Source: Squalus acanthias (taxonomy: Eukaryota). From it: a stretch of 64,000 bases of DNA. Each line of letters starts with the position of its first letter. Position 1 is the first letter of the stretch. Of this stretch, positions 3,117 to 48,858 are shown piece by piece. The notes under the pieces are model-generated. The model saw nothing but the letters and a program-made list of their open reading frames with translations. It had not been told where the DNA came from and made no database searches. The translations under genes and the position numbers were made by a program. The DNA is taken from positions 124,001 through 188,000 of the forward strand of contig JASTWF010000418.1 of assembly GCA_030390025.1 (NCBI GenBank). The letters are read 5' to 3'.

Positions 3117-3649
3117 CTGGAACAAGAATCAAGGGGTCAGTCACTGGCCCGAGTGTCTCTGGCCCAGAATCGAGGGGTCAGTCACTGACCTCAGTGTGTC
3201 TGGCCCAGAATCGAGGGGTCAATCACTGACCTCAGTGTGTCTGGTACAGAATCGAGGGGTCATTCTCTGACCTCTGATCTCACAATCACATATATCACAA
3301 GAACAGTGTGCGTGACTAGAGGTCTATAAAGATCGTGAGCTTTTCTTTTAGCAGAGAGGGACAAGGACGAAAGGTTCGACGATGGTTAGGTCTCTACCCA
3401 CAGGATAAACGGGGTTAATTGTGTTTACTTCTCTGCTTGGTTGAGCACATTAAAAGGTTTAAGTTGAAACCATATTTGGCATCAGATTCGAATTCTCTGA
3501 CACAGGGCAATGGGACTAAGGAGGGAGCTCGGTCAGAGAGAGGGCACGGGGGCGATGGGCTAAATTTCCTCGTCTGCTGTAAAATTCTCTCACTTTATGA
3601 TCCTTGAGTCACAGATATAAACAACAAACTCTAGGATACTTGGAATTCC

Positions 3650-4430: not shown

Positions 4431-4614
4431 TCATCTCTCTAAATTGTCCCTTTGTCCTAAAATCAGCTGGTCTTGGCGTAACTCCAAACCACCGTTCCCT
4501 GAACTGCCTCATCTGATGTCCTCCACCCTCCAAGCTTGGCTGTGGGCCATCGACTGCCCGTTCCCATTCCACCCCTCCCTTGCCCCCAAACGGGTTTCGG
4601 ACGAGCTCCCCTAC

Positions 4615-4995
4615 CGGCCTCGACCTTCAGTGTAGATCCACAGCCGCACCAATCTGTCGTGTTCTTGTCTCCCAGGTGGTCTGTCATTTGGCAGAAGTAC
4701 TTGGTGGAATCTTGCTGCGTGGCATTAGCGATCCGCAGAGACATCTGCTTTCGGCCAAAGTTCTTCTCGGCCACGTAATGGTGAGCTTTCCCAGCCACGA
4801 AGATGGGGACCTGTGACTTGGGGCTCCAGTACACCAGCTGCTTCATGGCCCCAGTGCCAGGGGGGACGTAACCCCAGATCAAGTACCGGTCGTCTGTCTT
4901 GCGGGAGAATCGGCACTCCATCGTGACCGACTCGCCCTCCCGGACGCTCATTAATGTGGACGAGAATCGGAAGTTCCCACCGCAGGAGGTGAGCC
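4615..4995 (-). CDS. Copy A exon 2: joined VJ-type V domain
   Basis: 381 nt with the same splice sites as copy B. Four amino-acid differences from copy B. Confidence 0.93.
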
Positions 4996-5116
4996 CTGAA
5001 AATAGAGAGAGAGACACAACTCGTGAATCCTCCCACCAAAGATAACTCAGGAAATGTAGGACGGTCGCAGCTAAGGCTGCACTTTGACATTGGTCAAGGT
5101 AAAGCTTGGTACAGAA

Positions 5117-8100
5117 CCTTGGTTAGACCACACTTGGAGCAATGTGCCCAGTCCCGGTCTCCATATACCTTGGATAGACCACACTTGGAGCACTGTGCAC
5201 AGTCCCGGTCTCCACATACCTTGGATAGACCACACTTGGAGCACTGTGCACAGTCCCGGTCTCCACATACCTTGGTTAGACCACACTTGGAGCAATGTGC
5301 CCAGTCCCGGTCTCCATATACCTTGGATAGACCACACTTGGAGCAATGTGCCCAGTCCCGGTCTCCACATACCTTGGATAGACCACACTTGGAGCAATGT
5401 GCCCAGTCCCGGTCTCCACATACCTTGGATAGACCACACTTGGAGCACTGTGCACAGTCCCGGTCTCCATATACCTTGGATAGATCACACTTGGAGCAAT
5501 GTGCACAGTCCCGGTCTCCATATACCTTGGATAGACCACACTTGGAGCACTGTGCACAGTCCCGGTCTCCACATACCTTGGATAGACCACACTTGGAGCA
5601 CTGTGCACAGTCCCGGTCTCCACATACCTTGGATAGACCACACTTGGAGCACTGCACACAGTCCCGGTCTCCACATACCTTGGATAGACCACACTTGGAG
5701 CACTGTGCACAGTCCCGGTCTCCACATACCTTGGATAGACCACACTTGGAGCACTGTTCACAGTTATGGTTTCCATATACCTTGGTTAGACCACACTTGG
5801 AGCAATGTGCCCAGTCCCGGTCTCCATATACCTTGGATAGATCACACTTGGAGCACTGTGCACAGTCCCGGTCTCCACATACCTTGGATAGACCACACTT
5901 GGAGCACTGTTCACAGTTATGGTTTCCATATACCTTGGTTAGACCACACTTGGAGCAATGTGCCCAGTCCCGGTCTCCACATACCTTGGATAGACCACAC
6001 TTGGAGCAATGTGCACAGTCCTGGTCTCCATATACCTTGGTTAGACCACACTTGGGGCAATGTGCATAGTCCCGGTCTCCATATACCTTGGTTAGACCAC
6101 ACTTGGAGCACTGTGCACAGTTCTGGTCTCCACATCCCTTACTTAGACCACACTTGGAGCACTGTGCACAGTTCTGGTCTCCACATCCCTTAGTTAGACC
6201 ACACTTGGAGCACTGTGCACAGTTCTGGTCTCCACATCCCTTACTTAGACCACACTTGGAGCACTGTGCACAGTTCTGGTCTCCACATCCCTTAGTTAGA
6301 CCACGCTTGGGGCACTGTGCACAATTCTGGTCTCCACATACCTTGGTTAGACCACGCTTGGAACTCCGTGCACAGTTCTGGTCTCCACATCCCTTAGTTA
6401 GACCACGCTTGGAGCACTGTGCACAGTTATGCTCTCCATATACCTTGGTTAGACCACACTTGGAGCACTGTGCACAGTTCTGCTCTCCATATACCTTGGT
6501 TAGACCACACTTGGAGCAATGTGCACAGTTCTGCTCTCCATATACCTTGGTTCGACCACACTTGGAGCGCTGTGCACAGTTCTGGTCTCCATATGCCTTG
6601 GTTAGACCACACTTGGAGCACTGTGCACAGTTAAGGTCTCCATTTAAAAAAATATATATTTTATTCGTTTATGGGATCTGGGCGTCGCTGGCAAGGCCAG
6701 CATTTATTGTCCATCCCTAGTTGCCCTTGAGAAGGTGGTGGTGACTCAATTTCTTGAACCGTTGCAGTCCGTGTGGTGATGGTACTCCCACAGTGCTGTC
6801 AGGGAGGGAGTTCCAGGATTTTGACACAGCGACGATGAAGGATCGGCCGATATACTTCTAAGTCAGGATGGTGTGTGACTTGGAGGGGAACTTGGAGGTG
6901 GTGGTGTTCCCATGTGCCTGCTGCCCTTATCCTTCTCGGTGGAAGAGGTCGCGGGTTTGGGAGGTGCTGCTGAAGAAGTCTTGGCGAGTTGCTGCAGTGC
7001 ATCTTGTAGATGATACACACTGCAGCCACGGTACGCCGGTGGCGGAGGGAGTGAATGTTTAAGGTGGTGGATGGGGTGCCAATCAAGCGGGCTGCTTTGT
7101 CCTGGATGGTGTCGAGCTTCTTGAGTGTTATTGGAGCTGCACTCATCCAGGCAAGTGGAGAGTATTCCATCACACTCCTGACTTGTGCCTTGTAGATGGT
7201 GGAAAGGCTTTGGGGAGTCAGGAGGTGAGACACTCGCCACAGAATACCCAGCCTCTGACCTGCTCTTGGTGCCACAGTATTTATGTGGCTGGTCCAGTTA
7301 AGTTTCTGGTTAATGTTGACCCCCAGGATGTTGATGGTGGGGGATTCGGCGACGGTAATGCCATTGAATGTCAAGGGGAGGTGGTTAGATTCTCGCTTGT
7401 TGGAGATAGTCATTGCCTGGCACTTCTGTGGCGCAAATGTTACCTGCCACTTATCAGCCCAAGCCTGAACGTCGTCCAGGTCTTGTTGCATGCGGGCATG
7501 GACTGCTTCATTATCTGTGGAGTTGTGAATGGCGCTGAACACTGTGCAGTCATCAGCGAACATCCCCATTTCTGACCTTATGTTGGAGGGAAGGTCATTG
7601 ATGAAGCAGCTGAAGATGGTTGGGCCGAGAACACTCCCCTGAGGAACTCCTGCAGTGATGTTCTGGGGCTGTGATGATTGACCTTCAACCACCACAACCA
7701 TCTTCCTTTGTGCTAGGTATGACTCCAGCCAGTGGGGTAGACCACACTTGGAGCTAGTTCTGGTCTCCACATCCCTTGGTTAGACCACACTTGGAGCAAT
7801 GTGCACAGTTCTGCTCTCCATATAACTTGGTTAGACCACACTTGGAGCACTGTGCACAGTTCTGTTCTCCATATACCTTGGTTAGACCACACTTGGAACA
7901 ATGTGCACAGTTCTGCTCTCTATATAACTTGGTTAGACCACACTTGGAACAATGTGCACAGTTCTGCTCTCCATATAACTTGTTTAGACCAGACTTGGAG
8001 CACTGTGCACAGTTCTGTTCTCCATATACCTTGGTTAGACCACACTTGGAGCACTGTGAACAGTTCTGTTCTCCATATACCTTGGTTAGACCACACTTGG

Positions 8101-8130
8101 AGCAATGTGCACAGTTCTGGCCTCCATATT
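5117..8130 (+). repeat. 51-bp satellite derived from CR1 ORF2 (copy at about 44964-48030)
   Basis: Unit ccttggttagaccacacttggagcactgtgcacagttctggtctccatata encodes LVRPHLEHCAQFWSPYT. It runs directly into CR1 sequence at 8130. Confidence 0.92.
6650..7735 (-). mobile_element. CR1-group non-LTR retrotransposon 3' fragment (second family) inserted in the 51-bp satellite; copy at about 46497-47584
   Basis: [36 protein letters not shown]. The copy B version carries frameshifts. Confidence 0.88.
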
Positions 8131-8880
8131 ACAAAAAAATACAGAAAGGCATTGAAGAAGGTGCAATAAAAATTTACAAGGATGATGCCAGAACTGAGAG
8201 GTTATACTTATCAGGAAAGACTGAACAGGCTAGGGCTCTTTTCTCCAGAAAAAGAGAAGGCTGATAGAGGTCTTTCAAATTATGAAACGGTTTGATAGGG
8301 TAAACAGAGACAAAATGTTTCCACTTGCAGAGGAGACCAGAACTAGTTGACATAAATATATGATAGTCACTAAGGCGATTGACAAAAGAACTAGAGGCAA
8401 CCTGAGGAAAAGCTTCAATACGCAGCGAGTGATTAGGATCGGGAATGCACTGCTTAATGGGGCGATGGATACAGACTCAATAGTGGCCTTCAAAAGGGAA
8501 TTGGATAAATACTTGAAGGAGAAAACATTGCAGGGATCTGGGGAATGAGCGGGCAGAATGGGACTAACTGGGTTGCTCTTAGAAAGAGCTGATGCAGACT
8601 CGATGGGCTGAATGGCCTCCTTCTGTGCTGTACTATTCTACGATTCTAATAAATTGAAGAAGGAATTCAGGAGAAACTTCTTTACCCAGGGAGTGCTGAG
8701 AATGTGGAACTCGTCACCACAGGGAGTGGTTGAGGCGAATATCACAGAGGTCTTTAAGGGGAGGCTAGATAAAGACATGAGGGAGAAAGGAATAGCAGCT
8801 TATGCTGGTAGGGTGAGATGAAGAGGGGAGGGAGAAGGCAGCATGGAGCAGTTGGGCTGAATGGCCTTTTCCTGCTCGAT
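8130..8880 (+). mobile_element. Degenerate CR1 3' fragments in the leader-V intron (copy at about 48030-48780)
   Basis: RRNFFTQ..VxxWN-type peptides and a CR1 3' UTR. Confidence 0.75.
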
Positions 8881-8912
8881 AAACTCAATGTAATTCTCGA
8901 TGTAAACCTTAC

Positions 8913-8958
8913 CAGCCAGGAGGAAGATGTGGACAGAGAGTGAAATCACCGACTTCAT
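8913..8958 (-). CDS. Copy A exon 1: signal peptide
   Basis: Identical to 48813-48858, with donor GTAAGG. Confidence 0.85.
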
Positions 8959-21445: not shown

Positions 21446-21510
21446 AACATTAAGAGGTATAGCACCAGGAGTCGGACCAGCAGATGTGGAGCAGGACTCA
21501 CTCTACTGAA

Positions 21511-22895
21511 CAGTAGTGTCCCCACTGAGCACTGTAGATACCAGCAGAGGGCACCCCACATCACCCAAACTGTTCACAGCAATGTCCCCACTGAGCACTG
21601 TAGACACCAGCAGAGGGCCCCCTACAGCACCAAATCCCGACAGCACCAAAACCATTCACAGCAGTGTCCCCACTGAAAGCTGTAGACACCAGCAGAGGGC
21701 ACCCCACATCAACCAAACCATTCACAGCAGTGTCCCCACTGAACACTGTAGACACCAGCAGAGGGCGCCCTACATCACCCAAACTATTCACAGCAGTGTC
21801 CCCATTGAACACTGTAGACACCAGCAGAGGGCACCCTACATCACCCAAACAGTTCACAGCAGTGTTCCCATTGAACACTGTAGACACCAGCAGAGGGTAC
21901 CCTACATCACCCAAACTATTCACAGCAGTGTCCCCACTGAACACTGTAGACACCAGCAGAGGGCACCCCACATCACCCTGACTATTCACAGCAGTGTCCC
22001 CATTGAACACTGTAGACACCAGCAGAGGGCACCCTACATCACCCTGACTATTCACAGCAGTGTCCCCACTGAACACTGTAGACACCAGCAGAGGGCGCCC
22101 TACATCACCCAAACTGTTCACAGCAGTGTCCCCACTGAACACTGTAGACACCAGCAGAGGGCACCCCACATCACCCTGACTAATAACAGCAGTGTCCCCA
22201 CTGGACACTGTAGACACCAGCAGAGGGCACCCTACATCACCCAAACTGTTCATAGCAGTGTCCCCACTGGACACTGTAGACACCAGCAGATGGCGGCCTA
22301 CATCACCCAAACTCTTCACAGCAGTGTCCCCACTGAACACTGTAGACACCAGCAGAGGGCGCCCTACATCACCCTGACTATTCACAGCAGTGTCCCCATT
22401 GAACACTGTAGACACCAGCAGAGGGCACCCTACATCACCCAAACTATTCACAGCAGTGTCCCCACTGAACACTGTAGACACCAGCAGAGGGCACCCTACA
22501 TCACCCTGACTATTCACAGTAGTGTCCCCATTGAACAGTGTAGACACCAGCAGAGGGCACCCTACATCACCCAAACCATTCACAGCAGTGTCCCCACTGA
22601 ACACTGTAGACACCAGCAGAGTGCGCCCTACCTCACCATTACTATTCACAGCAATGTCCCCATTGAACACTGTAGACACCAGCAGAGGGCACCCCACATC
22701 ACCCTGACTATTCACAGCAGTGTCCCCATTGAACACTGTAGACACCAGCAGAGGGCACCCTACACCACCCTGACTATTCACAGCAGTGTCCCCACTGAAC
22801 ACTGTAGACACCAGCAGAGGGCGCCCTACATCACCCAAACTGTTCACAGCAGTGTCCCCATTGAACACCATAGACACCAGCAGAGGGCACCCTCC
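21511..22895 (+). repeat. 66-bp tandem repeat, about 21 units, each with a CTCF-core-like motif CCAGCAGAGGGC(A/G)C
   Basis: Unit approx. ttcacagcagtgtccccactgaacactgtagacaccagcagagggcgccctacatcacccaaacta. By my count 18 of 21 units match CCASYAGRKGGCRS exactly. Confidence 0.9.
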
Positions 22896-22964
22896 AGCAC
22901 CCAATTCAATCTTTGCACAAAACCTGTGATGGTGTGAGACTCGCCCCCTTCTGTTCTGCTGGTT

Positions 22965-23250
22965 AGAGAGACTCAGAGCCTCCCTTTCTCCTGGTCTGAG
23001 TCTCGGCCCCTCCCTTTCTGCTGGTCTTAGACTCGGCCCCTCTCTTTCTCCTGGTCAGTGAGACTCGGCCCCTCCCTTTCTGATGGTCAGTGAGTCTCGG
23101 CCCCTCCCTTTCTGATGGTCAGTGAGACTCGGCCCCTCCCTTTCTGATGGTCAGTGAGTCTCGGCCCCTCCCTTTCTGATGGTCAGTGAGTCTCGGCCCC
23201 TCCCTTTCTGCTGGTGTGAGTCTCGGCCCCTCCCTTTCTGCTGGTCTGAG
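22965..23250. repeat. ~31-33-bp minisatellite in the presumed 3' UTR
   Basis: Repeats of gagtctcggcccctccctttctgatggtcagt just downstream of the stop codon. Confidence 0.8.
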
Positions 23251-23270: not shown

Positions 23271-23356
23271 CTACCTCTTCTGATCCAGCGATGGGATGGT
23301 CTCCATTTGAAGTTCACCCTGTGGCCAGAGACTGTTTCTCTGCATTCGGTAACTGC
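23271..23356 (-). CDS. Copy B terminal cytoplasmic exon (S/G-SYRMQRNSLWPQGELQMETIPSLDQKR*)
   Basis: Strong acceptor tttttcctcttctcttccctcacctgcAG. Phase-1 reading gives 28 residues, then TAG at 23273-23271. Confidence 0.7.
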
Positions 23357-24108: not shown

Positions 24109-24246
24109 CCTTTCTCTTCTGCCTGCAAGTCCTGATGCTGTGGGAAACGCTCAGGATGATGACTGTGTAGACGATCAGCCCGCAGACCGCGAGGAGAATC
24201 CAGAGCCAGGCCCAGTCCCCGAGCTCTCCCCTCAATATCGAGGGCC
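24109..24246 (-). CDS. Copy B transmembrane exon
   Basis: Acceptor ctgcttccccacAG, 138 nt, phase 1-1. GPSILRGELGD-WAWLWILLAVCGLIVYTVIILSV-SHSIRTCRQKRK: a hydrophobic helix followed by a basic stop-transfer cluster. Confidence 0.85.
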
Positions 24247-27553: not shown

Positions 27554-27877
27554 CTCGCTCCTTCCTGAGCACCCGTTCCACCAGTTCTTTCGAGGACCGG
27601 TGTCCCACCACACAGGAGTAGCTCTGGCCCCTCTCCCAGGCTTCCGACGGGACGGAGAGCTGGCTGACGGCGCCGAAGGTCCCGTTGCTGTCTGGGGTCA
27701 CCGGGAAGGTGGTCCTTCCGCTTGTGACCTCGCTGCCCTGGGCTCTCCAGGTCAAGTACACGTCTCCAGGGTAGAAACCGGACACAAAGCAGGCCAGAGT
27801 TGTCGTCCCATCGTTGAGGGAACCCTCCCGCTGTCCCACTTCCAAGGTGCGTATTTCAGGGCTCTTCACCAGCTGGG
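27554..27877 (-). CDS. Copy B exon 9: C1-set domain C7 (duplicate of C5)
   Basis: 324 nt (alternative donor would end at 27539). Identical to C5 in protein except L/V after GFYPGD. Confidence 0.9.
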
Positions 27878-28059
27878 CTGAAATCACAACAGGAATGGGT
27901 TTAGAAATCCCGGGAGGTGTAGAGAATTTCACTCCCCAGGTCCTGGGAGTCCCCCCATCTGGGACTGCAAACCATCCAGTGAATCACATCCCTCATCAAT
28001 CCCACATCAAAGACCATCTCCTGCTAATCTATTCATCACACCAGATCCCCTACCACTCC

Positions 28060-29030
28060 CATTGTAGCCCATCCCTCTAGTCCCCTAACTCTCCCATCGA
28101 AGACCATCCCTCTAGTCCCCAACCTCTCCCATTGAAGCCTATCCCTCAGACTCCCTAACTCTCCCATTGAAGCCCATCCCTCTAGTCCCCTAACTCTCCC
28201 ATCGAAGACCATCCCTCTAGTCCCCAACCTCTCCCATTGAAGCCTATCCCTCAGACTCCCTAACTCTCCCATCGAAGCCCATCCCTCTAGTCCTCTAACT
28301 CGCCCTTTGAAGCCCATCCCTCTAGTCCCCTAACTCTCCCATTGTAGCCCATCCCTCTAGTCCCCTAACTCTCCCATTGAAGCCCATCCCTCCAGTCCTC
28401 TAACTCTCCCATCGATGCCCATCCCTCTAGTCCTCTAACTCACCCATCGAAGCCAATCCCTCTAATCCCCTAACTCACAGATCGAAGCCCATCCCTCTTA
28501 TCCTCTAACTCTCCCATCGAAGCCCATCCCTCTAGTCCCCTAACTCTCCCACTGAAGCCCTTCCCACCAGTCCCTTAACTCTCCCATCAAAGCCCATCCC
28601 TCTAGTCCCCTAACTCTCCCATCGAAGCCCATCCCTCTAGTCCCCTAACTCTCCCATCGAAGCCCATCCCTCTCGTCACCTAACTCGCCCATCAAAGCCA
28701 ATTTTTCTAGTCCCTTAACTCTCCCATCAAAGCCCATCCCTCTAGTCCGCTAACTCTCCCATCAAAGCCCATCCCTCTGCTACCCTTAATCTCCCATCGA
28801 AGCCCATCCCTCTAGTCCTCTAACTCGCCCTTTGAAGCCCATCCCTCTAGTCTTCTAACTCTCCCATCGAAGCCCATCCCTCCAGTCCTCTAACTCTCCC
28901 ATCGATGCCCATCCCTCTAATCCCCGAACTGTCCCATCGAGGCCCATCCCTCTAATCCCCTAACTCTCCCATCGAAGCCCATCCCTCTAGTCCCCTAACT
29001 CTCCCATCGAAGCCCACCCCTCTAGTCTCC
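28060..29030. repeat. 35-bp minisatellite (cccatcgaagcccatccctctagtcccctaactct); paralogue at about 32310-32910
   Basis: Direct reading. Unit number differs between the two duplicate cassettes. Confidence 0.9.
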
Positions 29031-29137
29031 CCACCCTAACCAGTTCCCCCTCACACATGCCGCCCTCCCCTACCCCAACCCCACCTCCCCTCCCCCTACC
29101 CTCTCCACCCCGCCCCCTGCCCCGATCGCTGACTCAC

Positions 29138-29458
29138 CGTCTCCTGCAGTGATCGTGCTGGTTACTGGGGTTGTCAGGGCCTCGTGTGTAACCTCACAGG
29201 TGTAACTGGCCCCCGAACCCCAGTCCTCCCCGGACACCGTCAACTCACTCCTGGACCTGTAGGTCCCGTCCGGGTTGGCAAGGCACGGCAGAGCCTGGGA
29301 GCCGCCGCCCACCTCCGACTCCGCACCGATCCACCGGAAGGATATCGTATCCGGGTAGAACCCAGTGGCGGCGCAGGCCAGCGTGGCGGTCTGATTGGTC
29401 AGAATCTCCTGGATCGAGGGAGGGACGAGGCGGACGGACGGAGGGGAGGGGGAACGGG
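29138..29458 (-). CDS. Copy B exon 8: C1-set domain C6 (duplicate of C4)
   Basis: 321 nt with intact splice sites. Identical to C4 in protein except I/V near the C-terminus. Confidence 0.9.
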
Positions 29459-29589
29459 CTGAGGGGGGAAAACAAAACATGGATTAGGAGCCAGGAATCT
29501 GCGGGAATGAACTCAACGTCACCTGAGGTCCAGAGAGAGAGCTGAAGGGTCCTCGCTCTCTGATGGGCAGTGGGTCAGAAAGGAGAGTC

Positions 29590-30410
29590 ATGGCTTTATT
29601 AATAGAGGCATAGAGTACAAAAGCAAGGAAGTTAAGCTAAACCTTTTATAAATTACTGGTTATGCCTCAACTGGAGTCTGGTGTCCAATTCTGGGCACCA
29701 CACTTTAGGAAGGATGCCAAGGCCTTGGAGAGGGTGCAGAGGAGATTGACCAGAATGGTACCAGGGATGAGGGACTTCAGTTACGTGGAGAGACTGGAGA
29801 AGCTGGGGTTGTTCTCCTTAGAGCAGAGAAGGTTAAGAGGAGATTGACCAGAATGGTACCAGGGATGAGGGACTTCAGTTACGTGGAGAGACTGGAGAAG
29901 CTGGGGTTGTTCTCCTTAGAGCAGAGAAGGTTAAGGGGAGATTGACCAGAATGGTACCAGGGATGAGGGACTTCAGTTATGTGGAGAGACTGGAGAAGCT
30001 GGGGTTGTTCTCCTTGGAGCAGAGAAGGTTAAGAGGAGATTTAATCGAGGTGTTGAAAAACATTAATGGTTTTGATAGAGTAAATAAGGAGAAACTGTTT
30101 GCAGTTGCAGGAGGGTTGGTAAGCAGAGGACACAGATTAAGGTAATTGGAAAAAGAACCAGAGGGGAGATGAGGAAACATCTTTTTACGCAGCGAGTTGT
30201 TGTGATCTGGAACGCGCTGCCTGAAAGGGCAGTGGAAGCAGATTCAATAGTAACTTTGAAAAGGGAATTGGATAAATACTTGAGGGGGAAAAATGTACAG
30301 GGCTGTGGGGAAAGAGCAGAGGAGTGGGACTAATTGGAGAGCTCTTTCAAAGAGCCGGCACAGGCACGATGGGCCGAATGGCCTCCTTCTGTGCGGGTAC
30401 TACGATACTT
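29590..30410 (+). mobile_element. CR1 3' fragment with an internal ~99-bp segment in triplicate
   Basis: [33 protein letters not shown] is encoded three times in tandem. Confidence 0.85.
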
Positions 30411-30492
30411 CGATCTCTGTCCTGCCTTCTAAATCCAGAGTGGGAAAGGGAGGGAGTTGGGGTTAAGAGTTAGAGGTTGAGGTAAGGAGTTA

Positions 30493-31205
30493 CCTGACTG
30501 CCTTTCATCACACCTCGGCAGAGAAACCATCAGGTCAGCCAGGAAGGCACCACATCAAAGACATAGCAAGATACAACTGAGACAATGAGGTGGGGTCACA
30601 GGGGTCTGCTGTCCTTGACTTCAGCAGTCAAGGACATTCAGACTCGGATCTGCGGGTAAGCGTTCTCCAAGGCGGCCTTCGAGACACACGACAACGCAAA
30701 ATCATCGAGCAGAAACTGATCGCCAAGTTCCGCACCCATGAGGACGGCCTCAACCGGGATCTTGGGTTCATGTCACGCTACATGTAACCCCACCTGACGT
30801 AGAGTCATCCAGACTCCAGTCGTCGTTGGCTTGTTCACAGAAGTGATTTCCAGTAAAAAAAAGTAAAAATTTTAAAGTTTATGGTTTTCCATACAGACGG
30901 CATTTGACACATTAGATCCCCTGTGACCCCACCTCATTGTCTCAGTTGTATTTTGCTGTGTCTTTGATATAATGTCTTCCTGACCTGATTGTTTCTCTGC
31001 TGAGGTGTGACGAAAGGCAGTCAGGAAGATTAACTGTAGTCGTCTGACATTGTACGCTACACAGGCATTGTTCTCTGTCTATATATGCTTTGCCGATTCG
31101 TGTTCCTTCACTTCACCTGACGAAGGGGCAGCAGCTCCGAAAGCTTGTGATTTCAAATAAAACTGTTGGACTATAACCTGGTGTTGTGCGACTTCTCACT
31201 TTTTT
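30493..31205 (+). mobile_element. Penelope-like element remnant (GIY-YIG C-terminus, inverted repeat, hammerhead motif)
   Basis: Peptide DLRVSVLQGGLRDTRQRKIIEQKLIAKFRTHEDGLNRDLGFMSRY; ~115-bp inverted repeat (30493-30607 vs 30914-31025); CTGACGA...GAAA core followed by AATAAA. Confidence 0.8.
31113..31150 (+). ncRNA. Minimal type I hammerhead ribozyme motif (Penelope-associated)
   Basis: TCAC (stem I) - CTGACGA - A - GGGGC agca GCTCC (stem II) - GAAA - GC - TT - GTGA (stem I'). Stem III is reduced to the palindrome AAGCTT. Confidence 0.75.
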
Positions 31206-31816
31206 TAAGTCAGAGCAGACTGTCTCCCCACCGGTGTAATAAAGACAACCTGACTATCGATCCGAAAACCTTGTGTCGAGTGTTGGTTTAAAATACTCCA
31301 CAACAGGACCTTCGCCACATGGACTGCAGCGGTTCAAGAAGGTGGCTCACCACCACCTTCTCAAGGGCAATTAGGGATGGGCAATAAATGCCGGCCTTGC
31401 CAGTGACGCCCACATCCCAGGAACGAATTTAAAAAAAGAGGAACTGAAACCTACGCTGGTGGAGCAGAAGGAATGGGGGACGAGGAGAAGGATGTTGGAG
31501 GAGTGATGGGAGGGCGCAGGGTTTTTTTAAGGAAGGAGGTCACAGACGAAAGGCACGGGGAGGATACGGAGGGAGGCGATCGCCAGGGTAAGAGTTTTGA
31601 GGTGAGTGGAGCTCGGAGCCTGGGGAGGGTTGGAGAGGACACGGGGCGGTGGGAGAGTGGGAAGACGTGGGCCATTGGGGGTTTGGGATGAGTTGGAGTT
31701 TGCCCGGGTCGGGTTGAGGAGACAGCCCGGAGAGGACTGCGGAGTGACCGGCGAGCGAGTCACGACGCGCGAGGACCGGGGAGAAGCTCCACCCCCCTCA
31801 CCAGAGGCTTCTTCAC

Positions 31817-32140
31817 CTCGCTCCTTCCTGAGCACCCGTTCCACCAGTTCTTTCGAGGACCGGTGTCCCACCACACAGGAGTAGCTCTGGCCCCTCTCCC
31901 AGGCTTCTGACGGGACGGAGAGCTGGCTGACCGCGCCGAAGGTCCCGTTGCTGTCTGGGGTCACCGGGAAGGTGGTCCTTCCGCTTGTGACCTCGCTGCC
32001 CTGGGCTCTCCAGGTCAAGTACAGGTCTCCAGGGTAGAAACCGGACACAAAGCAGGCCAGAGTTGTCGTCCCATCGTTGAGGGAACCCTCCCGCTGTCCC
32101 ACTTCCAAGGTGCGTATTTCAGGGCTCTTCACCAGCTGGG
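31817..32140 (-). CDS. Copy B exon 7: C1-set domain C5
   Basis: 324 nt, gatttcAG / GTGAAG. An alternative in-frame donor G|GTGAGG would end the exon at 31802. CFVSGFYPGDLYLTW, YSCVVGH. Confidence 0.9.
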
Positions 32141-33015
32141 CTGAAATCACAACAGGAATGGGTTTAGAAATCCCGGGAGGTGTAGAGAATTTCACTCCCC
32201 GGGTCCTGGGAGTCCCCCCATCTGGGACTGCAAACCATCCATTGAATCACATCCCTCATCAATCCCCCATCAAAGACCATCTCCTGCTAATCTATTCATC
32301 ACACCAGACCCCCTACCTCTCCCATCGAAGCCCATCTCTCCGGCTCCCTACCTCTCCCATCGAATCCCATCCCTCTAGTCCCCTAACTCTCCCATCGATG
32401 CCCATCCCTCTAGTCCCCTAACTCTCCCATCGAAAACCATCCCTCTAATCCCTGAACTCTCCCATCGAAGCCCATCCCTCTAGTCCCCTAACTCTCCCAT
32501 CGAAGCCCATCCCTCCAGTCCTCTAACTCACCCATCGAAGCACATCCCTCTAGTCTCCTAACTCTCCCATCGAGGCCCATCCCTCTAATCCCCTAACTCG
32601 CCCATCGAAGCCCATCCCTCTAGTCCCCTAACTCTCCCATCGAAGCCCATCCCTCCAGTCTCCTAACTCTCCCATCAAGGCCCATCCCTCTAGACCACTA
32701 ACTCTCCCATCGATACCCATCCCTCTAATCCCCTAACTCTCCCATCGAAGCCCATCCCTCCAGTCCTCTAACTCTCCCATCAAAGCCCATCCCTCTAGAC
32801 ACCTAACTCTCCCATCGAAGCCCATCCCTCCTGTCCCCTAACTCTCCCATCGATACCCATCCCACTAATCCCCGAACTCTCCCATCGAAGCCCACCCCTC
32901 TAGTCTGCCCACCCTAACTAGTTCCCCCTCACACATGCCGCCCTCCCCTACCCCAACCCCACCTCCCCTCCCCCTACCCTCTCCATCCCGCCCCCTGCCC
33001 CGATCGCTGACTCAC

Positions 33016-33336
33016 CGTCTCCTGCAGTGATGGTGCTGGTTATTGGGGTTGTCAGTGCCTCGTGTGTAACCTCACAGGTGTAACTGGCCCCCGAACCCCA
33101 GTCCTCCCCGGACACCGTCAACTCACTCCTGGACCTGTAGGTCCCGTCCGGGTTGGCAAGGCACGGCAGAGCCTGGGAGCCGCCGCCCACCTCCGACTCC
33201 GCACCGATCCACCGGAAGGATATCGTATCCGGGTAGAACCCAGTGGCGGCGCAGGCCAGCGTGGCGGTCTGATTGGTCAGAATCTCCTGGATCGAGGGAG
33301 GGACGAGGCGGACGGACGGAGGGGAGGGGGAACGGG
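33016..33336 (-). CDS. Copy B exon 6: C1-set domain C4
   Basis: 321 nt, ccccctcAG / GTGAGT. PPSVRLVPPS, CAATGFYPDTISFRW, YTCEVTH, plus an extra Cys in ALPCLA. Confidence 0.93.
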
Positions 33337-33729
33337 CTGAGGGGGGAAACAAAACATGGATTAGGAGCCGGGAATCTGCGGGAATGAACTCAACGTCACC
33401 TCAGGGAGGCTGGAGGACAAATCACGGCCCAGAGAGAGGGGCTGAAGGGTCCTCGCTCTCTGATGGGCAGTGGGTCAGAAAATGACCTCTCTCCCTCGGG
33501 AACCTGCAGATTCTACAAAGTAGTTACAGCACAGAAACAGGCCATTCGGCCCAACTGGTCCATGCCGGTGTTTATGCTCCACTCGAGCCTCCTCCCACCC
33601 TTTTCATCAAACCCCAACAGAATATCCTTCTACCCCTTTCTCCCTCTTATACTTACCTGTTTCCCCTTAAATGCATCTCTGCTTTTCATCTCCTTGTGGT
33701 AACGAGTCCCACCTTTTCACCACTCTCTG

Positions 33730-34700
33730 GGTAACCCAGGTATATGGAGACCAGGACTGTGCACAGTGCTCCAAGTGTGGTCTAACCAAGGTATATGGAG
33801 AACAGAACTGTACACAGTGCTCCAAGTGTGGTCTAACCAAGGTATATGGAGACCAGAACTGTGCACAATGCTCCAAGTGTGGTCTAACCAAGGTATATGG
33901 AGACCAGAACTGTGCACAGTGCTCCAAGTGTGGTCTAACCAAGGTCTATGGAGACCAGAACTGTGCACAGTGATCCAAGTGTGGTCTGACCCAGGTATAT
34001 AGAGACCAGAACTGTGCACAGTGCTCCAAGTGTGGTCTAACCCAGGTATATGGAGACAAGAACTGTGCACAGTGCTCCAAGTGTGGTCTAACCAAGGTAT
34101 CTGGAGACCAGGACTGTGCACAGTGTTCCAAGTGTGGTCTAACCAAGGTATATGGAGACCAGAACTGTGCACAGTGCTCCAAGTGTGGTCTAACCAAGGT
34201 ATGTGGAGACCAGGACTGTGCACATTGCTCCAAGTGTGGTCTAACCCAGGTATATGGAGACCAGAACTGTGCACAGTGCTCCAAGTGTGGTCTAACCAAG
34301 GTATATGGAGACCAGGACTGTGCACCGTGCTCCGAGTGTGGTCTAACCCAGGTATATGGAGACCAGAACTGAGCACAGTGCTCCAAGTGTGGTCTAACCA
34401 AGGTATATGGAGACCAGAACTGTGTACAGTGCTCCAAGTGTGGTCTAACTAAGGTATATGGAGACCAGGACTGTGCACAGTGCTCCAAGTGTGGTCTAAA
34501 CCAGGTATATGGAGACCAGGACTGTGCACAGTGCTCTAAGTGTGGTCTAACCCAGGTATATGGAGACCAGAACTGTGCACAGTGCTCCAAGTGTGGTCTA
34601 ACCAAGGTATATGGAGACCAGAACTGTGCACAGTACTCCAAGTGTGGTCTAACCAAGGTATATGGAGACCAGGACTGTGCACAGTGCTCCAAGTGTGGTC
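33730..34700 (-). repeat. Second 51-bp CR1-derived satellite, opposite orientation
   Basis: Same unit reverse-complemented, about 19 copies. Confidence 0.92.
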
Positions 34701-34757
34701 TGAAGGCGTGATCTAGCCTGGGGACCCTCGGTTGTGTATCAATCGCACGTCACTGAC

Positions 34758-35075
34758 CTTCGCTGCGGACCTGTGTCCTGATTGGCTCAGCCAGTGTCCG
34801 GTGAGACACCAGGCAGGTGTAGAGTGATCCTCTTGTCCACTGCGAGCTGGAGGCGGTCAGTCTGCTGATCAGGGTATAACTCCCGTCCGGTTGGATGGAG
34901 GGGCCGGTGTCCGCGAAGCCTGAACTGACCGGCTGACCGTCCACCTCCCAGGAGAGCGAGATGTTCCGCGGGTAGAAACCGGTGGCTCCACAGGTGAGCT
35001 TGACCTCGCTCCCGGCCGCGATCTCCTCAGGAGGAGGGCGGTGGAGGAAGGTGGAGGGAGGCTGCGGAGAGCGCA
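34758..35075 (-). CDS. Copy B exon 5: C1-set domain C3
   Basis: 318 nt, ctctctcctttgcAG / GTCAGT. CGATGFYPRNISLSW, DGSYTLISRL, YTCLVSH. Confidence 0.93.
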
Positions 35076-35215
35076 CTGCAAAGGAGAGAGTTAAACATTG
35101 TGAAGATCATTCTCCGGGTAATATCACTTTGAACAAACGCCCATTTATCTCGGCCCGTTGACACAGTAACACCTCCCAAGGTGCTTCACAGGAGCGATTA
35201 GCAAACAAAACATTC

Positions 35216-36710
35216 GATGGAATCTGGAACTGTACCCATGGATTGGAGGGTAGCTAATGTTACCCCACTATTCAAAAAGGGTGGTAGAGAGAAAGCGGGG
35301 AATTACAGACCGGTAAGCCTGACATCGGTAGTGGGGAAAATGCTAGAGTCCATTATAAAGGATGTAATAGCTGAGCATTTGAAAAACAGTGACAGGATCG
35401 GACAAAGTCAACATGGATTTACAAAAGGTAAATCGTGCTTGACTAATCTACTGGAATTTTTTGAGGATGTAACTGGGAAAATAGATAAGGGAGAACCAGT
35501 AGATGTGGTGTATTTGGACTTTCAAAAGGCTTTCGATAAGGTCCCGCATAAGAGATTAGCGGGTAAAGTTAAGGCACATGGGATTGGGGGCAAGGTATTG
35601 ACTTGGATAGAGAACTGGTTGGCGGACAGAAAGCAGAGAGTAGGAATTAATGGGTCTTTTTCCGAGTGGCAAGCAGTGACTAGTGGGGTACCGCAGGGAT
35701 CGGTCCTTGGACCCCAGCTATTCACAATATACATTAATGATCTAGATAAGGGAATTAAATGTAATATCTCCAAGTTTGCAGATGACACAAAGCTGGGTGG
35801 GAGTGTGTGCAGCGAGGAGAATAGCGAGAAACTCCAGGATGATCTGGACAGGTTGGGTGAGTGGGCAGAAGCATGGCAGATGCAATATAACGTGGATAAG
35901 TGCGAGGTTATCCACTTTGGTGTCAAAAACAGAAAGGCAGACTATTATCTGAATGCCAATAGATTGGGAGAAGGGGAAGTGCAACGAGACCTGGGTGTCA
36001 TTGTGCACCAGTCGCTGAAAGTAAGCATGCAGGTGCAGCAAGCGGTGAAGAAGGCAAATGGTATGTTGGCCTTCATAGCGAAAGAGTTTGAGTATAGGAA
36101 CAGGGATGTCCTGCTGCAGTTGTACAGGGCCTTGGTGAGACCACACCTTGAGTACTGTGTGCAGTTTTGGTCGCCTTATCTGAGGAAGGATGTTCTTGCC
36201 ATGGAAGGAGTTCAGCGAAGATTCACAAGGCTGATACCTGGGATGGCAGGAATGACATATGAGGAGAGATTGGGTCGATTGGGCTTATACTCACTGGAGT
36301 ATAGAAGAATGAGAGGGGATCTCATCGAAACATATAAAATTCTGACAGGTCTGGACAAACTAGATGCAGGAAGAATGTTCCCGATGGTCGGAGAGTCCAG
36401 AACCAGGGGTCATAATCTACGGATAACGGGTAAACGATTTAGGACAGAAATGAGAAAGAATTTCTTCACCCAGAGAGTAGTGAACCTGTGGAATTCTCTA
36501 CCACAGAAGGTAGTTGAGGCGAAGTCATTAAATATATTCAAGGATAAGTTAGATATATTTCTTAAAGCTAAAGGTATCAAGGGATATGGGGAGAAGGAAG
36601 GTACAGGGTACTGAGTTTAGATGATCAGCCATGACCTCATCGAATGGCGGAGCAGGCTCGAGGGGCCGAATGGCCTACTCCTGCTCCTATCTTCTATGTT
36701 TCTATGTTAT
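35216..36710 (+). mobile_element. Young 5'-truncated CR1 LINE (465-aa open RT frame)
   Basis: RT motifs, 3' UTR hairpin region and TTCTATGT tail. Confidence 0.95.
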
Positions 36711-36905
36711 GTTTCTAACCCGTGCTGTACCTGCCCTGGGAGTGTTTGATGGGACAATATGGAGGGAGCTTTACTCTGTATCTAACCTGTACTGCACCTG
36801 CCCTGGGAGTCTTTGATCGGACAGTGTAGAGGGAGCTTTACTCTGTATCTAACCCGTGCTGTACCTGCCCTGGGAGTGTTTGATGGGACAGTGTAGAGGG
36901 AGAGG

Positions 36906-39265
36906 GTGTTGTGTAATGAGGAAGGACTAATCAGCAATCTTGTGGTACGAGGCCCCCTGGGGAAGAGTGACCATAGTATGGTGGAGTTCTACATTAGGAT
37001 GGAGAAGGAAACATTTAAGTCAGAGACCATGGTCCAGAACTTAAATAAGGGCAACTTTGAGGGTATGAGGCGTGAATTGGTGAGGTTAAATTGGCAAGCG
37101 ATATTTAAGGGGCTATCAGTGGAAGGGCAATGGCAGACATTTAGAGATCGCATGGATGAACTACAACAATTGTACATCCCGGTCTGGCGTAAAAATAAAA
37201 AAGGGAAGGTGGCTCAACCATGGCTAACAAGGGAAATCAGGGATAGTATTAAAACCAAGGAAGTTGCATACAAATTGGCCAGAAGTAGCAGCAAACCCGG
37301 GGACTGGGAGAACTTCAAAACTCAGCAGAGGAGGACGAAGGGTTTGATTAGGACAGGGAAAATAAAATATGAAAGGAAGCTTGCAGAGAACATTAAAATG
37401 GACTGCAAAAGCTTCTATAAATATGTAAAAGGAAAGAGGTTAGTAAAAACAAACGTAGGTCCCCTGCAGTCGGAAACAGGGGAAGACGTAATGGGGAACA
37501 AGGAAATGGCTGATCAATTGAACAAGTACTTTGGTTCGGTGTTTACTGTGGAGGACACACACAACCTGCCGGAAATAAAAGGGGTCAGAGGATCTGGTAA
37601 GAGGGAGGAGCTAAGGGAAATCCTTATTAGTCGGGAAAAGGTATTGGGAAAATTGATGGGACTGAAGGCTGAAAAATCCCCGGGGCCTGATGGTCTGCAT
37701 CCCAGAGTACTTAAGGAGGTGGCCTTGGAAATAGTGGATGCATTGACGATCATTTTCCAACATTCCTTAGACTCTGGATCAGTTCCGATGGAGTGGAGGG
37801 TGGCCAATGTAACCCCTCTTTTTAAAAAAGGAGGGAGGGAGAAAGCTGGGAATTATAGACCGGTCAGCCTGACATCGGTCGTGGGTAAAATGATGGAAGC
37901 AATTATTAAAGATGTCATAACAGACCAATTTGAAAGTGGCGACATGATAGGTCCAAGTCAGCATGGATTTGTGAAAGGGAAATCATGCTTGACAAATCTT
38001 CTGGAATTTTTTGAGGATGTTTCCAATAGGGTGGACAGGGGGGAACCAGTAGATGTGGTGTATTTGGACTTTCAGAAGGCCTTCGACAAGGTCCCACACA
38101 AGAGATTGGTGAGCAAAGTTAAAGCACATGGGATTGGGGGTAATGTGTTGACGTGGATTGAGAACTGGTTGGCACACAGGAAACAAAGAGTAGGAGTAAA
38201 TGGGTACTTTTCAGAATGGCAGGCAGTGACCAGCGGGGTACCGCAGGGTTCGGTGCTGGGACCCCAGCTGTTTACATTATATATTAATGATTTGGACGAA
38301 GGGATTAAATGTAATATCTCCAAATTTGCGGATGACACTAAATTGGGAGGCAGTGTGAACAATGAGGAGGATGCTAGGAGGCTACAGAGTGACTTGGACA
38401 GGTTGGGTGAATGGTCAAATGTATGGCAGATGAAGTACAATGTGGATAAATGTGAGGTTATCCACTTTGGTGGTAAAAATAGAGAGGCGGACTACTACCT
38501 GAATGGTGGCAGATTAGGGAAAGGGGAGGTGCAACGAGACCTGGGCGTCATGGTACATCAGTCACTGAAGGTGGGAATGCAAGTGCAGCAGGCAGTCAAG
38601 AAAGCAAACGGAATGATGGCCTTCATAGTAAGGGGATTTGAGTACAGGAGTAGGGAGGTGATGCTGCAGTTGTACAGGGCCTTGGTGAGGCCACACCTGG
38701 TGTATTGTGCGCAGTTTTGGTCTCCTAACTTAAGGAAGGACATTCTTGCTATTGAGGGAGTGCAGCGAAGGTTCACTAGATTGATTCCTGGGATGGCCGG
38801 TCTGACATATCAAGAAAGATTGGGTCAACTGAACTTGTATCCTCTGGAGTTCAGAAGAATGAGGGGGGATCTTATAGAGACATTTAAAATCCTGACTGGT
38901 TTAGACAAATTAGATGCGGGCAGAATGTTCCCAATGTTAGGGAAAACTAGAACCAGGGGTCACAGTCTAAGGATTAAGGGGAAGCAATTTAAGACTGAGC
39001 TGAGGAGGAACTTCTTCACCCAGAGAATGGTGAATCTATGGAATTCTCTTCCACAGAAGGTTGTTGAGGCCAGTTCGCTAAATATATTCAAAAGGGAGTT
39101 AGATATAACACTCACAACTAGGGGGATCAAGGGGTATGGCGAGAAAGCAGGAATGGGGTACTGAGCTAGCATGTTCAGCCATGAACGCATTGAATGGCGG
39201 TGCAGGCTCGAAGGACCGAATGGTCTACTCCAGTACCTAGTTTCTATGTTTCTATGTTTCTATGT
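36906..39265 (+). mobile_element. Young 5'-truncated CR1 LINE (ORF2 linker + RT, 752-aa open frame) in the C2-C3 intron
   Basis: [41 protein letters not shown] and a (TTCTATGT)n 3' tail. It splits a ~67-bp minisatellite. Confidence 0.95.
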
Positions 39266-39493
39266 ATCTAACCCCGTGCTGTACCTGCCCTGGGAGTGTT
39301 TGATGGGACAGTGTGGAGGGAGCTGTACTCTGTATCTAACCCCGTGCTGTACCTGCCCTGGGAGTGTTTGATGGGACAGTGTAGAGGGAGCTTTACTCTC
39401 TATCTAACCTGTGCTGTACCTGCCCTGGGAGTGTTTGATGGGACAGTGTGGAGGGAGCTGTACTCTCTATCTGAGGGATGAGGTGTATCTTAC

Positions 39494-39814
39494 CGTCATG
39501 TTTGCTGAGGGTCTGTGTCAGCGGAGTTGTTGAGGAAAGGTGTTTGACCAGACAGGTGAAGATTGATCCTGAATCCCATTCCCGGACAGGGACCTTTAAC
39601 GTGCTGCTGGAACTGTAGCTCCCATTCTCGTGTTGCGTTGTGTGGCCAGGCTCCGAGGAGAAGGATGTCTGGCGGTTATTGATGAGCCAGGTGAAGGAGA
39701 TCTTCCTGGGGTGAAATCCGACTGCCTGACACCCCAATGTGGCCGTCCTGTTAGTGTCCATTTCATCGTAGGTGGGGGGTAGGACGTAGACGCTGGGAAC
39801 CGTAGGGTATCGGG
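39494..39814 (-). CDS. Copy B exon 4: C1-set domain C2
   Basis: 321 nt, ctccAG / GTAAGA. PSVYVLPP, CQAVGFHPRKISFTW, NGSYSSSSTL, W-DSG, FTCLVKH. Confidence 0.93.
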
Positions 39815-42644
39815 CTGGAGATCCACCGGAGAGACAACGGAATGAAGGCATTAGTGGGCGGTGAGAGATCAGGCCCACCTTGGAGCCCCCCAGTTAATCG
39901 CCCCCCAGTTAATCGCCCCCCCAGACTGGGGGGACAGCGAGATCAGCCCCTCACTCAGAGCCCCCCAGTTAATCACCCCCCAGACTGGGGGGAACAGTGA
40001 GATCAGCCCCTCACTCGGTGCCCCCCAGTTAATCGCCCCCAGACTGGGGTGAACAGCGAGATCAGCCCCTCACTCAGAGACCCCCAGTTTACCGGCCCCC
40101 CAGTTAATCGCCCCCCAGACTGGGGGGGAAGAGCGAGAGGAGCCTGTAGGATATAGTGTACCTGTAGGATTTAGTAAACATTGTTAAGATTTTGTAACCA
40201 TTATTAAGTAAGTATAATATGTGAAATTGTATGTTAAAAACCTAAAACGCCTGTATAAAATGGCTGGGAAGCAAAGCATGATGGTAAAATTAAGCCAACA
40301 TTATGTTAACTGGGAGAATAGTGCTGAGTTGGTGTAGATTTTCTGTTATATTAAAAACAAGAAGCCAGTGAAGGACAAAGCATTAATTAAGTCTCAAAGT
40401 AAGACAAAGGGGTAGAAATTAGGTCACGCCCCATTTGGGGTGCAAATATCGTCTGGACGCAAATATTAGCGCCTGGCGCTAATTATCGGCACTGACTGGA
40501 AACTTCACTTTTACCGCCCCGGGAGGTGAGTGGAGCGCTAAATCAGGCGCTGCACACCTGTCTTAAGGCGCAAAGGCCAAGGAGTGAGGCGCTACCTCAG
40601 AGCGCTGGCGAAGCTCATGTAATGTCAGTCAGCAATGGAACACACACACAATGGCACGGGCCAGTTCTTAAAGGGGATGGTTAATCTTGCTTTCCATCCA
40701 CATCCTGTTCATTGCAGCCTTTAATCTCGGCCTGGAGAGACTGGCACATCAAATGTGCTGGAAAGAACAATGGAGAGTACCAGGCAAAGAGCTCAGAGTG
40801 CAGCTCCCACAATCTCTGCTAAATCGATACAAGGAATGGCAAATCAAAATGAACCTGCAAAGTGCTGCTCAGTACCCAAAACTCCTTCACACAACGTTGA
40901 ATCTCTCCAGAAGTCTCTCCCTCTCTCTCTCAGAATGCGTAGTTCAAAAATGCCACCAACAATAAAAGACAGGAAGAGGCCCCCTTTAAATAGCGCCCCC
41001 CCCAGCCCCACAGCGATTGATAGCGTTCCAGTCTTCTGGTCGTTGGATGCGCCAGGCGGTAAGGCAGGGGGCGCCACTCAATTTCCGCTCCGGGGCGCCA
41101 CAAGGGCGTTGCACCATGGAATGACGTCACAATCTGCGCGCGCAGGTGGTCGCAGCGGTAAAGTTTAGCGCCGCCGCACAATCTCTAGTTAAGTTCCCGA
41201 GCGGCGCAAACATCGCTGCGCCCGGGCGTTAGCGGCTTTGCGCCCCATTAGCGCCCTCTTAAGGCGCTAACGGGAGGCGCAACCAACTGAATTTTTACCC
41301 CAAAGGGTTTTCAATACCGAACATCCCTCATCGCTGAAGTTTCAGACCAGTCTAGATAATGGGCTGTGGGAAAGGCAAAAGACCTCCGTCTTAATTCATG
41401 GGAAGTCCGGCTATGTGCAAGATCTCAAACTCAAAGTTCACAGCAGAATAGGGGAGGGAATCATAGACCGTACTTGTGAAGGTCAGCATGGTGAGATAGC
41501 CCAAGCAGCTGCCAGTTGCTATGTATTTTGAAAGGGAAAAAAAAGGTATAAAGGAACAGCTATTGAACACTGAAAGCAGTGCGAAACCAGAGGTCGAGAA
41601 GCTTCAGTCAACAGAACACAGCAAGAGAATAAAGAGACCGCGCCGCAGTCACTCGGAAGGAACGCCAGGGTTCAATGAACAGACGGCGACTATCTTCTTG
41701 TTAAGTATTACTTCTTTATACTGGATGTTTAATGTTTAATAAACCTGTTTTACTGATACACAATATACCTGGACCCAGAGTGGTTTGTGTCATAGAAACA
41801 CGGACAAATTAATTCAGAGCTTTAAAAGCTACAAGACCCACCTCAGAGCCCCCCAGTTAATCACCCCCCAGACTGGGGGGAAGAGCGAGATCAGCCCCTC
41901 ACTCAGAGCCCCCCAGTTAATCGCCCCCCAAACTGGGGGAAACAGCGAGATCAGCCCCTCAGTCAGAGCCTCCCAGTTAATCACCCCCCAGACTGGGGGG
42001 AACAGTGAGATCAACCCCTCACTCAGAGCCCCCCAGTTAATCGCCGCCCAGACTGGGGGGAAGAGCGAGATCAGCCCCTCACTCGGAGCCCCCCAGTTAA
42101 TCGCCCCCCAAACTGGGGGAAACAGCGAGATCAGCCCCTCACTCAGAGCCTCCCAGTTAATCACCCCCCAGACTGGGGGGAAGAGTGAGATCAACCCCTC
42201 ACTCAGAGCCCCCCAGTTAATCAGACCCCAGACTGGGGGGAAGAGCGAGATCAGCCCCTCACTCGGAGCCCCGCAGTTTACCGGCCCCCCAGATTGGGGG
42301 GAACAGCGTTGGGGGGGTTTCTGACGTCTGGGTTGTGATTCCGCGGGGGCTCATTAACGACAATCGCGGGAACCCGCTGGATTGAAATGGGGGGGGTGGG
42401 GGGGGGGCCGGGGAGGAGCGCCCCTCGCGATCTGTTCCCCGGGTCACAAACCTCCCCTCCCCTCCCCCGGTGACTGGGAGCCAAGCCCAGGGGTTAACCC
42501 ACTAAACCTTCAACCCCCAACTCTCTAATCCCAGCACAAATCTCCACCTCAATCCCCCAGCCCAATTCAACCTCCCTAACCCCCGAACCCTCGCTGCCCC
42601 CCCGCCCCCCCCCCCCAACAACCCCCAGCAGTCCAGACACTCAC

Positions 42645-48812: not shown

Positions 48813-48858
48813 CAGCCAGGAGGAAGATGTGGACAGAGAGTGAAATCACCGACTTCAT
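48813..48858 (-). CDS. Copy B exon 1: signal peptide (MKSVISLSVHIFLLA-G) of a non-rearranging V-C1 Ig-superfamily receptor
   Basis: ATG at 48858, 15 mostly hydrophobic codons plus 1 nt, then donor G|GTAAGG. This is the phase-1 split leader typical of Ig/TCR genes and it is in frame with the V exon. Confidence 0.85.

Follow-up and report, generated by a model that had tools for sequence, protein, structure and literature searches.

A 66-bp minisatellite located just 3' of a shark UrIg2 gene carries 21 co-oriented CTCF-type cores, 18 of which match the CTCF consensus, and we favor, with moderate confidence, the reading that this array is an incidental, probably CTCF-bindable one-way extrusion barrier that would have arisen from one captured and amplified site. 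All counts below refer to a 64-kb window, the whole stretch of DNA that was analyzed, and the coordinates of its main features are collected in Table 1.

TRF reported 20.9 copies of the 66-bp unit with 85% matches, and anchoring on the CTCF-type core resolved the array into 21 units with a mean pairwise identity of 91%, spaced 66 bp apart in 19 of 20 cases and 82 bp apart in the other. The CpG observed/expected ratio of the array is 0.08, and several other arrays in the window are equally low. The pattern CCASYAGRKGGCRS was employed as the CTCF consensus and scanned as a pattern match; it occurs 18 times in the window, in every case on the + strand and within the array, in agreement with the original prediction that 18 of 21 units match exactly. 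The accompanying statement that each 66-bp unit carries the sequence CCAGCAGAGGGC(A/G)C is slightly overstated, given that this exact sequence is present in 17 of the 21 units, the rest being one variant and three one-base misses of the consensus, at 21607, 21887, and 22613. The variant, which had been predicted to fit the consensus and does so, is the core of unit 13 (22283-22296, +) and differs by three changes. No core contains a CpG at positions 2-3, where CCA is read in all 21. Shuffling of the whole window gave a mean of 0.06 consensus matches compared to 18 in the real window, but this figure makes the array look more surprising than it is, all 21 motifs having been copied from a single seed, and the whole-window shuffle was rejected as proof of significance, repeat units not being independent of one another. 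Two smaller details of the array were also observed. The three tolerated changes in unit 13 occur together and may reflect conversion from another locus, and they bring this core close to a YY1 site. A degenerate core-like 14-mer at 21477-21490 (+), 64 bp to the left of the first unit, has the change G9T in common with unit 13.

By its exon structure and protein matches, the gene beside the array is shark UrIg2, a non-rearranging antibody-like receptor. Copy B of this gene consists of 11 minus-strand exons, running from 48858 to 23271 with canonical phase-1 junctions, and encodes an uninterrupted protein of 965 aa made up of a leader, a single-exon VJ domain, seven C1-set domains, a transmembrane segment, and a short tail. 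The best PDB match for the V exon is nurse shark UrIg2 (9dmx, E 2.1e-54; the next match has 1.4e-10), which is the first match for the C5 domain as well, while the best database match for the V exon is a Heptranchias protein with 79% identity (3 matches among 27 candidates). All ten exons tested align in order to Heptranchias P0001, with the duplicated pair fitting either copy. The features that define UrIg2 are present: a split leader (46-nt exon), a 381-nt single VJ exon, phase-1 junctions, multiple C1 exons with a duplicated pair, transmembrane and cytoplasmic exons, and a best match to UrIg2 rather than to Ig or TCR. Apart from the two UrIg2 copies, no gene was identified in the window, and thus no member of the IgH/TCRad/PSMB5 complex. 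The split leader, single-exon VJ, duplicated C1 pair, and transmembrane region with short tail are likewise those of published UrIg2 (PMC12227049; 9dmx). The last two C1 exons of copy B are a duplicate of the preceding two, and both the number of C1 domains and the duplication of the last pair are as in Heptranchias P0001, in contrast with the nine C1 domains of nurse shark UrIg2 (PMC12227049). Relative to the nurse shark protein, the form described here seems to have two extra unique domains after C1. In a domain-by-domain comparison, C5 here matches nurse shark C3, and C4 resembles nurse shark C2 by eye.

A second copy of the gene, copy A, is partly contained in the window. The segment 1-8129 repeats at 39846-47978 with 99.5% identity over 8.1 kb, a level that implies recent duplication, and further upstream the copies remain homologous, with interruptions by LINEs, as far as about 17.6 kb for copy A and 63.2 kb for copy B. 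Judged by this identity, copies A and B are recent tandem duplicates and not an old system of clonally expressed clusters, and the duplication (1-17600 versus 39846-63250) may even be a false haplotype duplication. The position expected for an array belonging to copy A falls outside the window. The two near-identical tandem copies differ from the arrangement of UrIg2 in PMC12227049, which lists one locus per shark; in Table S1 of that paper, UrIg2 is represented by one locus in each of three sharks and by two to three models in stingray. The V exons of copies A and B were also found to differ at 6 nucleotides, resulting in 4 amino-acid changes, and their upstream regions differ by several LINE insertions.

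Table 1. Coordinates of the array, the UrIg2 exons, and related repeats in the 64-kb window.
Feature	Position	Strand	Basis or detail
66-bp minisatellite, 21 units	21510..22904	+	TRF, core anchoring
21 co-oriented CTCF-type 14-bp cores	21541..22890	+	First core 21541-21554, last 22877-22890; 18 exact, 3 with one mismatch
32-bp minisatellite between stop codon and CTCF-motif array	22934..23246		Likely 3' UTR; without consensus match
UrIg2 copy B last coding (cytoplasmic) exon	23271..23356	-	Stop 23273-23271; 37% identity over 19 aa to Heptranchias tail
UrIg2 copy B transmembrane exon	24109..24246	-	Exon model; Heptranchias alignment
UrIg2 copy B seven C1-set exons	27554..42962	-	42962-42645, 39814-39494, 35075-34758, 33336-33016, 32140-31817, 29458-29138, 27877-27554
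UrIg2 copy B single-exon VJ domain	44462..44842	-	9dmx E 2.1e-54; Pfam V-set; 79% to Heptranchias P0001
UrIg2 copy B leader exon (split leader)	48813..48858	-	Exon model
UrIg2 copy A 5' part	2799..8958	-	Leader 8958-8913, V 4995-4615, C1 3116-2799; remainder left of window
Amplified CR1 ORF2 minisatellites (51-bp, 98-bp)	5116-6642, 7756-8129, 33732-34701, 26180-26385, 29738-30041		

The array and exon coordinates agree with the placement originally proposed, a co-oriented tandem array of CTCF motifs just 3' of the gene and between its two copies, with the motifs pointing into copy B: all cores are on the + strand, and copy B lies to their right on the minus strand. Motif orientation is given here relative to the strand customarily taken as forward for CTCF. 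The distance from the copy B stop codon is 380 bp to the last core and 366 bp to the TRF end of the array, close to the roughly 400 bp originally given, and the start codon of copy A lies 12.5 kb from the array. Such a dense co-oriented cluster of cores on the 3' side of UrIg2 could act as a block to loop extrusion, because the CTCF orientation code is followed at TAD borders in skate, which have inward-facing CTCF motifs (PMC10115646).

Several units of the array are probably bound by CTCF where chromatin is open, as predicted from their sequence. The CTCF motif is common to lamprey, chicken, and mammals (PMC5504073), and strong loss of CTCF binding upon methylation is reported only for a CpG at core positions 2-3 (PMC5694663). 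The upstream (ZF9-11) motif is absent from the array at spacings of -17 and -18, where the mean number of matches to the published optimum is 2.8 and 1.6 of 9; this motif is present in only about 6,000 of 48,137 ChIP peaks (PMC10287918). Outside the array, the 64-kb window contains no CTCF site with one mismatch or fewer on either strand, and thus no convergent, reverse-strand partner at that threshold, and five CTCF-like sites with two mismatches; partners could lie beyond the window. The two-mismatch sites at 9173, 11302, and 49073 (+) are located about 215 bp upstream of the UrIg2 starts and in an extra promoter copy, and are not convergent partners because they share the strand of the array. 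The repeat-dense surroundings could be heterochromatic.

Tandem repeats account for 25,374 of the 64,000 bp (40%) and fall into 20 families, with units totaling 710 bp. When the units of these 20 families were shuffled, a seed matching the consensus arose in 9 of 30,001 shuffles, and a third-order Markov model gave 9e-4, placing the probability of a seed match by chance at 3e-4 to 9e-4 per window. For comparison, 30-50 thousand CTCF sites per 3-4 Gb, an assumed density with which the 41,421 CTCF peaks of lamprey are in line (PMC5504073), would give 0.007-0.012 captures of a real site per window, although the ratio of capture to chance obtained in this way is an upper bound, as only some real sites match the strict consensus and the site density is assumed. 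Given how rare a seed match is by chance, the seed is more likely to have originated as a captured real CTCF site. A seed match is rare per window, yet expected now and then in a genome-wide scan, and both the chance and the capture route will produce such arrays somewhere in the shark genome.

That arbitrary DNA gets amplified in this window follows from the 51- and 98-bp families, 2 of the 14 tested (CR1 profile, one array each), which are amplified pieces of CR1 LINE ORF2, and simple tandem repeats are described as abundant on small shark chromosomes (PMC10620051). Long spurious ORFs result from the 51-bp and 98-bp minisatellites. The 66-bp unit had no match to the CR1 ORF2 profile that found these arrays, and a CR1 ORF2 origin suggested by a collinear-looking alignment was rejected, its score of 35 being equaled by 89 of 300 shuffles; derivation of the unit from a dimer of a 33-mer was rejected as well (p=0.73). 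When the satellite was sought elsewhere by way of mis-predicted proteins, one + frame of the array had no match among 8,000 scored candidates of 218-695 aa, and the 43 matches of the open minus-strand frame, all 20-34% identical, are read as periodic-composition noise, which is weak evidence on dispersal of the satellite. By eye, no nonamer was seen in the 66-bp unit at 12/23 spacing from RSS-like heptamers.

Comparison of the units with one another gave mixed indications on whether the core has been constrained. In these counts two columns were partly masked, in the tails of unit 2, which has a 16-bp duplication inside it, and of the last unit. Taken per site, the core is no cleaner than its surroundings: 5 of its 14 positions are variable compared to 25 of the other 52 (Fisher p=0.30), 26 of the 66 windows along the unit are as clean, and singletons occur at 1.7% both within the core (5/294) and elsewhere (18/1073). 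From singletons only, 17.1 intact units would be expected neutrally, and 18 are seen (p=0.44). The kind of change found gives a different impression. The sole recurrent core allele, A13G, is present in 6 of 21 units and is tolerated, compared to 11 recurrent alleles in the other 52 sites, and 3 of the 6 core alleles are tolerated where 14-17% would be expected (p=0.04-0.07, rising to 0.15-0.2 when unit 13 is counted as one event). Under column permutation, about 10 broken units are expected and 3 are found, with p=0.053, 0.031, and 0.082 in three versions of the test. A binomial test based on the divergence rate of the flank gives p=0.0004 for 18 intact units, but this test is invalid because a few recurrent columns drive the flank rate, and the column permutation is its fair version. 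When the consensus mask was moved stepwise through the unit, 13% of its positions overall did as well as the core; among positions that do not overlap the core, the share was 1%. The core sits in the best-conserved third of the 66-bp unit, whose cleanest stretch starts about 10 bases 5' of the core, and the 5' flank is conserved like the core itself.

In the reading we favor, a 66-bp unit lying a few hundred bases beyond the stop of UrIg2 would have captured one CTCF site a single time, and the minisatellite expansion that affected this whole region would have multiplied it about 21-fold. The 21 copies on a single strand go back to one seed, more likely a real CTCF site that already existed than a match at random, and the co-orientation of the copies needs no further cause, because tandem copying produces it automatically. 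CTCF would be expected on several units in open chromatin because the core is canonical and without CpG at the methylation-sensitive positions 2-3. Under the usual orientation rule, by which cohesin is stalled according to CTCF motif direction, cohesin that comes from the side of gene B would be halted at the array, and a local boundary or the anchor of a stripe could form there, lying between the copy B 3' end and the copy A promoter. The barrier would then be a by-product, or the amplified job of an ordinary site, rather than a device evolved for clonal receptor choice. Several observations count against this reading, including the missing upstream motif, the lack of a reverse-strand partner elsewhere in the window, and a per-site variability of the core that is not below that of the rest and would fit an inert repeat too, while the borderline permutation p values (0.03-0.08) lean toward a selected element. 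In addition, transcription can displace CTCF, and it may run through the array when UrIg2 is on, because neither AATAAA nor ATTAAA occurs on the gene strand from the stop to 20552.

Were the array simply an inert minisatellite, its CTCF-like 14-mer would be a chance match or a dead relic, packed in nucleosomal or heterochromatic DNA and without effect on folding or expression. This would be in keeping with the 40% tandem-repeat content of the window, in which the array is one family among 20, with singleton rates that are equal inside and outside the core, with a number of intact units close to the neutral expectation, and with the three of six core alleles that break the consensus. The A13G/G13A difference is a CpG-CpA change that deamination would explain, and a genome-wide scan covers many windows, so events of about 1e-3 occur. 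We nevertheless consider an inert array somewhat unlikely, in view of the canonical core without CpG at positions 2-3, the scarcity of broken units under column permutation, and the assumed site density, under which a chance match is less likely than the capture of a real site by a factor of roughly ten. At the opposite end, selection might have kept the array as a strong one-way 3' boundary of UrIg2, one that, like the Igh 3'CBEs, shields a gene expressed in gill and liver from neighboring antigen-receptor chromatin or closes that chromatin off. Tandem co-oriented CTCF sites are reported to act as insulators (PMC7087399; PMC7826415), the position on the 3' side with motifs facing the gene fits, no recurrent allele breaks the core, broken units number 3 rather than about 10, and in four species UrIg2 lies outermost among the genes listed for the AgR complex (Table S1, PMC12227049). 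However, the per-site tests are null, 13% of sliding placements equal the core and the 5' flank is conserved to the same degree, the window holds no partner motif, and units that are 91% alike point to a young or homogenized array. The nearest listed Ig/TCR gene is, moreover, about 2 Mb away in stingray and 4.5 Mb in great white and catshark (Table S1, PMC12227049). Taken together, we regard maintenance by selection as distinctly unlikely.

The array may also be transcribed together with UrIg2, because poly(A) signals are lacking beyond the stop: none of 12 variants occurs on the gene strand between the stop (23271) and 21221, and the first AATAAA, at 20552, lies in a LINE 2.7 kb past the stop. 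It could therefore be imagined to act at the RNA level, within a terminal exon, 3' UTR, or termination zone, as a roadblock to Pol II, as an element of 3'-end processing, or as mere UTR filler. The array has no special RNA fold (z -0.67) and no Rfam match, and a structured RNA or RNA family was rejected for it on these grounds; non-canonical 3' ends are possible, and we give an RNA-level role a slim chance. Lastly, the original prediction had joined to the boundary the purpose of setting each gene cluster apart so that tandem receptors could be expressed independently or clonally. The geometry of that proposal stands, with a dense co-oriented cluster facing the gene from its 3' side and located between two copies of an antigen-receptor-like gene, but the purpose finds no support in the gene. 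UrIg2 is described in PMC12227049 as a paralogue of UrIg that does not rearrange and is linked to the IgH/TCRad complex, with expression that is highest in gill, followed by liver, and as 'not expressed by lymphocytes'; it is mostly a single locus in sharks (Table S1, PMC12227049), and the two copies here are recent duplicates with 99.5% identity. Clonal expression as the purpose of the array is highly improbable.

With its CTCF motif in the unit and its common polarity, the array is nearest in kind to the CTCF-bearing tandem repeats, on the criterion of the DXZ4/FIRRE/ICCE type. Like DXZ4, FIRRE, and ICCE, its units carry CTCF motifs of common polarity, a property that at Dxz4 sets contact direction (PMC6985041, PMC6125249 for the class; PMC6985041 for Dxz4). 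Those repeats, however, are X-linked, combine paired YY1 sites with allele-specific hypomethylation, and carry motifs that are conserved among mammals (PMC6985041, PMC6125249), and the DXZ4 unit measures 3 kb, compared to a unit of 66 bp and 1.4 kb in all for the shark array. Nearest in scale are the alphaherpesvirus repeats, in which CTCF motifs are multiplied in short units of variable copy number (PMC3192842); these are viral and have been shown in part to bind CTCF and to insulate, whereas the shark array occupies a vertebrate chromosomal locus and consists of predicted sites with a canonical 14-bp core. The mouse Igh 3'CBEs, ten consecutive CTCF sites insulating the locus end (PMC7826415), offer a further parallel, as CBE orientation at Igh sets stripe direction (PMC11876664), and in both cases many CTCF motifs lie 3' of an Ig-superfamily gene of antigen-receptor type and face inward. 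With 18 exact matches and 3 near ones spread over 1.35 kb, the shark cluster has more than the ten or so motifs of such a super-anchor and is co-oriented toward the locus from its 3' side, with all cores on the + strand and the gene on the minus strand, and it could work in a similar way. The Igh 3'CBEs, however, close a megabase locus that rearranges and has a 3' regulatory enhancer; their occupancy is proven, and their deletion has phenotypes (PMC7826415, PMC11876664). The shark cores are candidate sites that a minisatellite repeats every 66 bp, and the gene whose stop lies 0.4 kb away does not rearrange. We do not file the array as an Igh 3'CBE, because the gene is non-rearranging, no partner motif is in view, and the CTCF sites are candidates.

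If bound, the array would represent a natural and very dense CTCF barrier in a shark, with one site per 66 bp and variable copy number, in which minisatellite expansion would have made a strong boundary from one site, and it would offer a simple test of site number against insulation. It is plausible that the array is a local element belonging to a known kind. Conservation of the array at UrIg2 across elasmobranchs would, in addition, be informative about the partitioning of the shark antigen-receptor complex, a matter that the UrIg2 paper leaves to unspecified chromatin regulation (PMC12227049); its main text contains no mention of CTCF, insulator, or satellite. The strongest form of this idea, a conserved elasmobranch super-anchor built from a minisatellite 3' of UrIg2, with the motif selected while the unit turns over, has in our view little prospect of being correct. 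It would stand at the edge of the antigen-receptor complex, beside the gene that has been put forward as most closely related to the RAG-invaded ancestor, and would be a counterpart of the Igh 3'CBE boundary, of independent or ancestral origin, in which copy number would tune insulation. No earlier report of CTCF arrays at shark antigen-receptor genes was found in the literature covered, which was mostly non-subscription.

Two further sequences in the region between and around the UrIg2 copies were observed. The segment 18540-18716 (-), which occurs once in the window, has a strong acceptor-like site at 18716, a 40-codon open frame, and an ATTAAA near 18560; it is possible that this is an orphan terminal exon between the copies, and the candidate exon (18714-18595) was without protein match. 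At 10914-11345 (-), within the 16-bp satellite of copy A, there is a second copy, of about 150 bp, of UrIg2 promoter-proximal sequence. This second copy is absent upstream of copy B. It is fused to a unique 273-bp stretch that ends in an ATG and a strong splice donor at 10913, and could possibly represent an alternative first exon or part of another gene.
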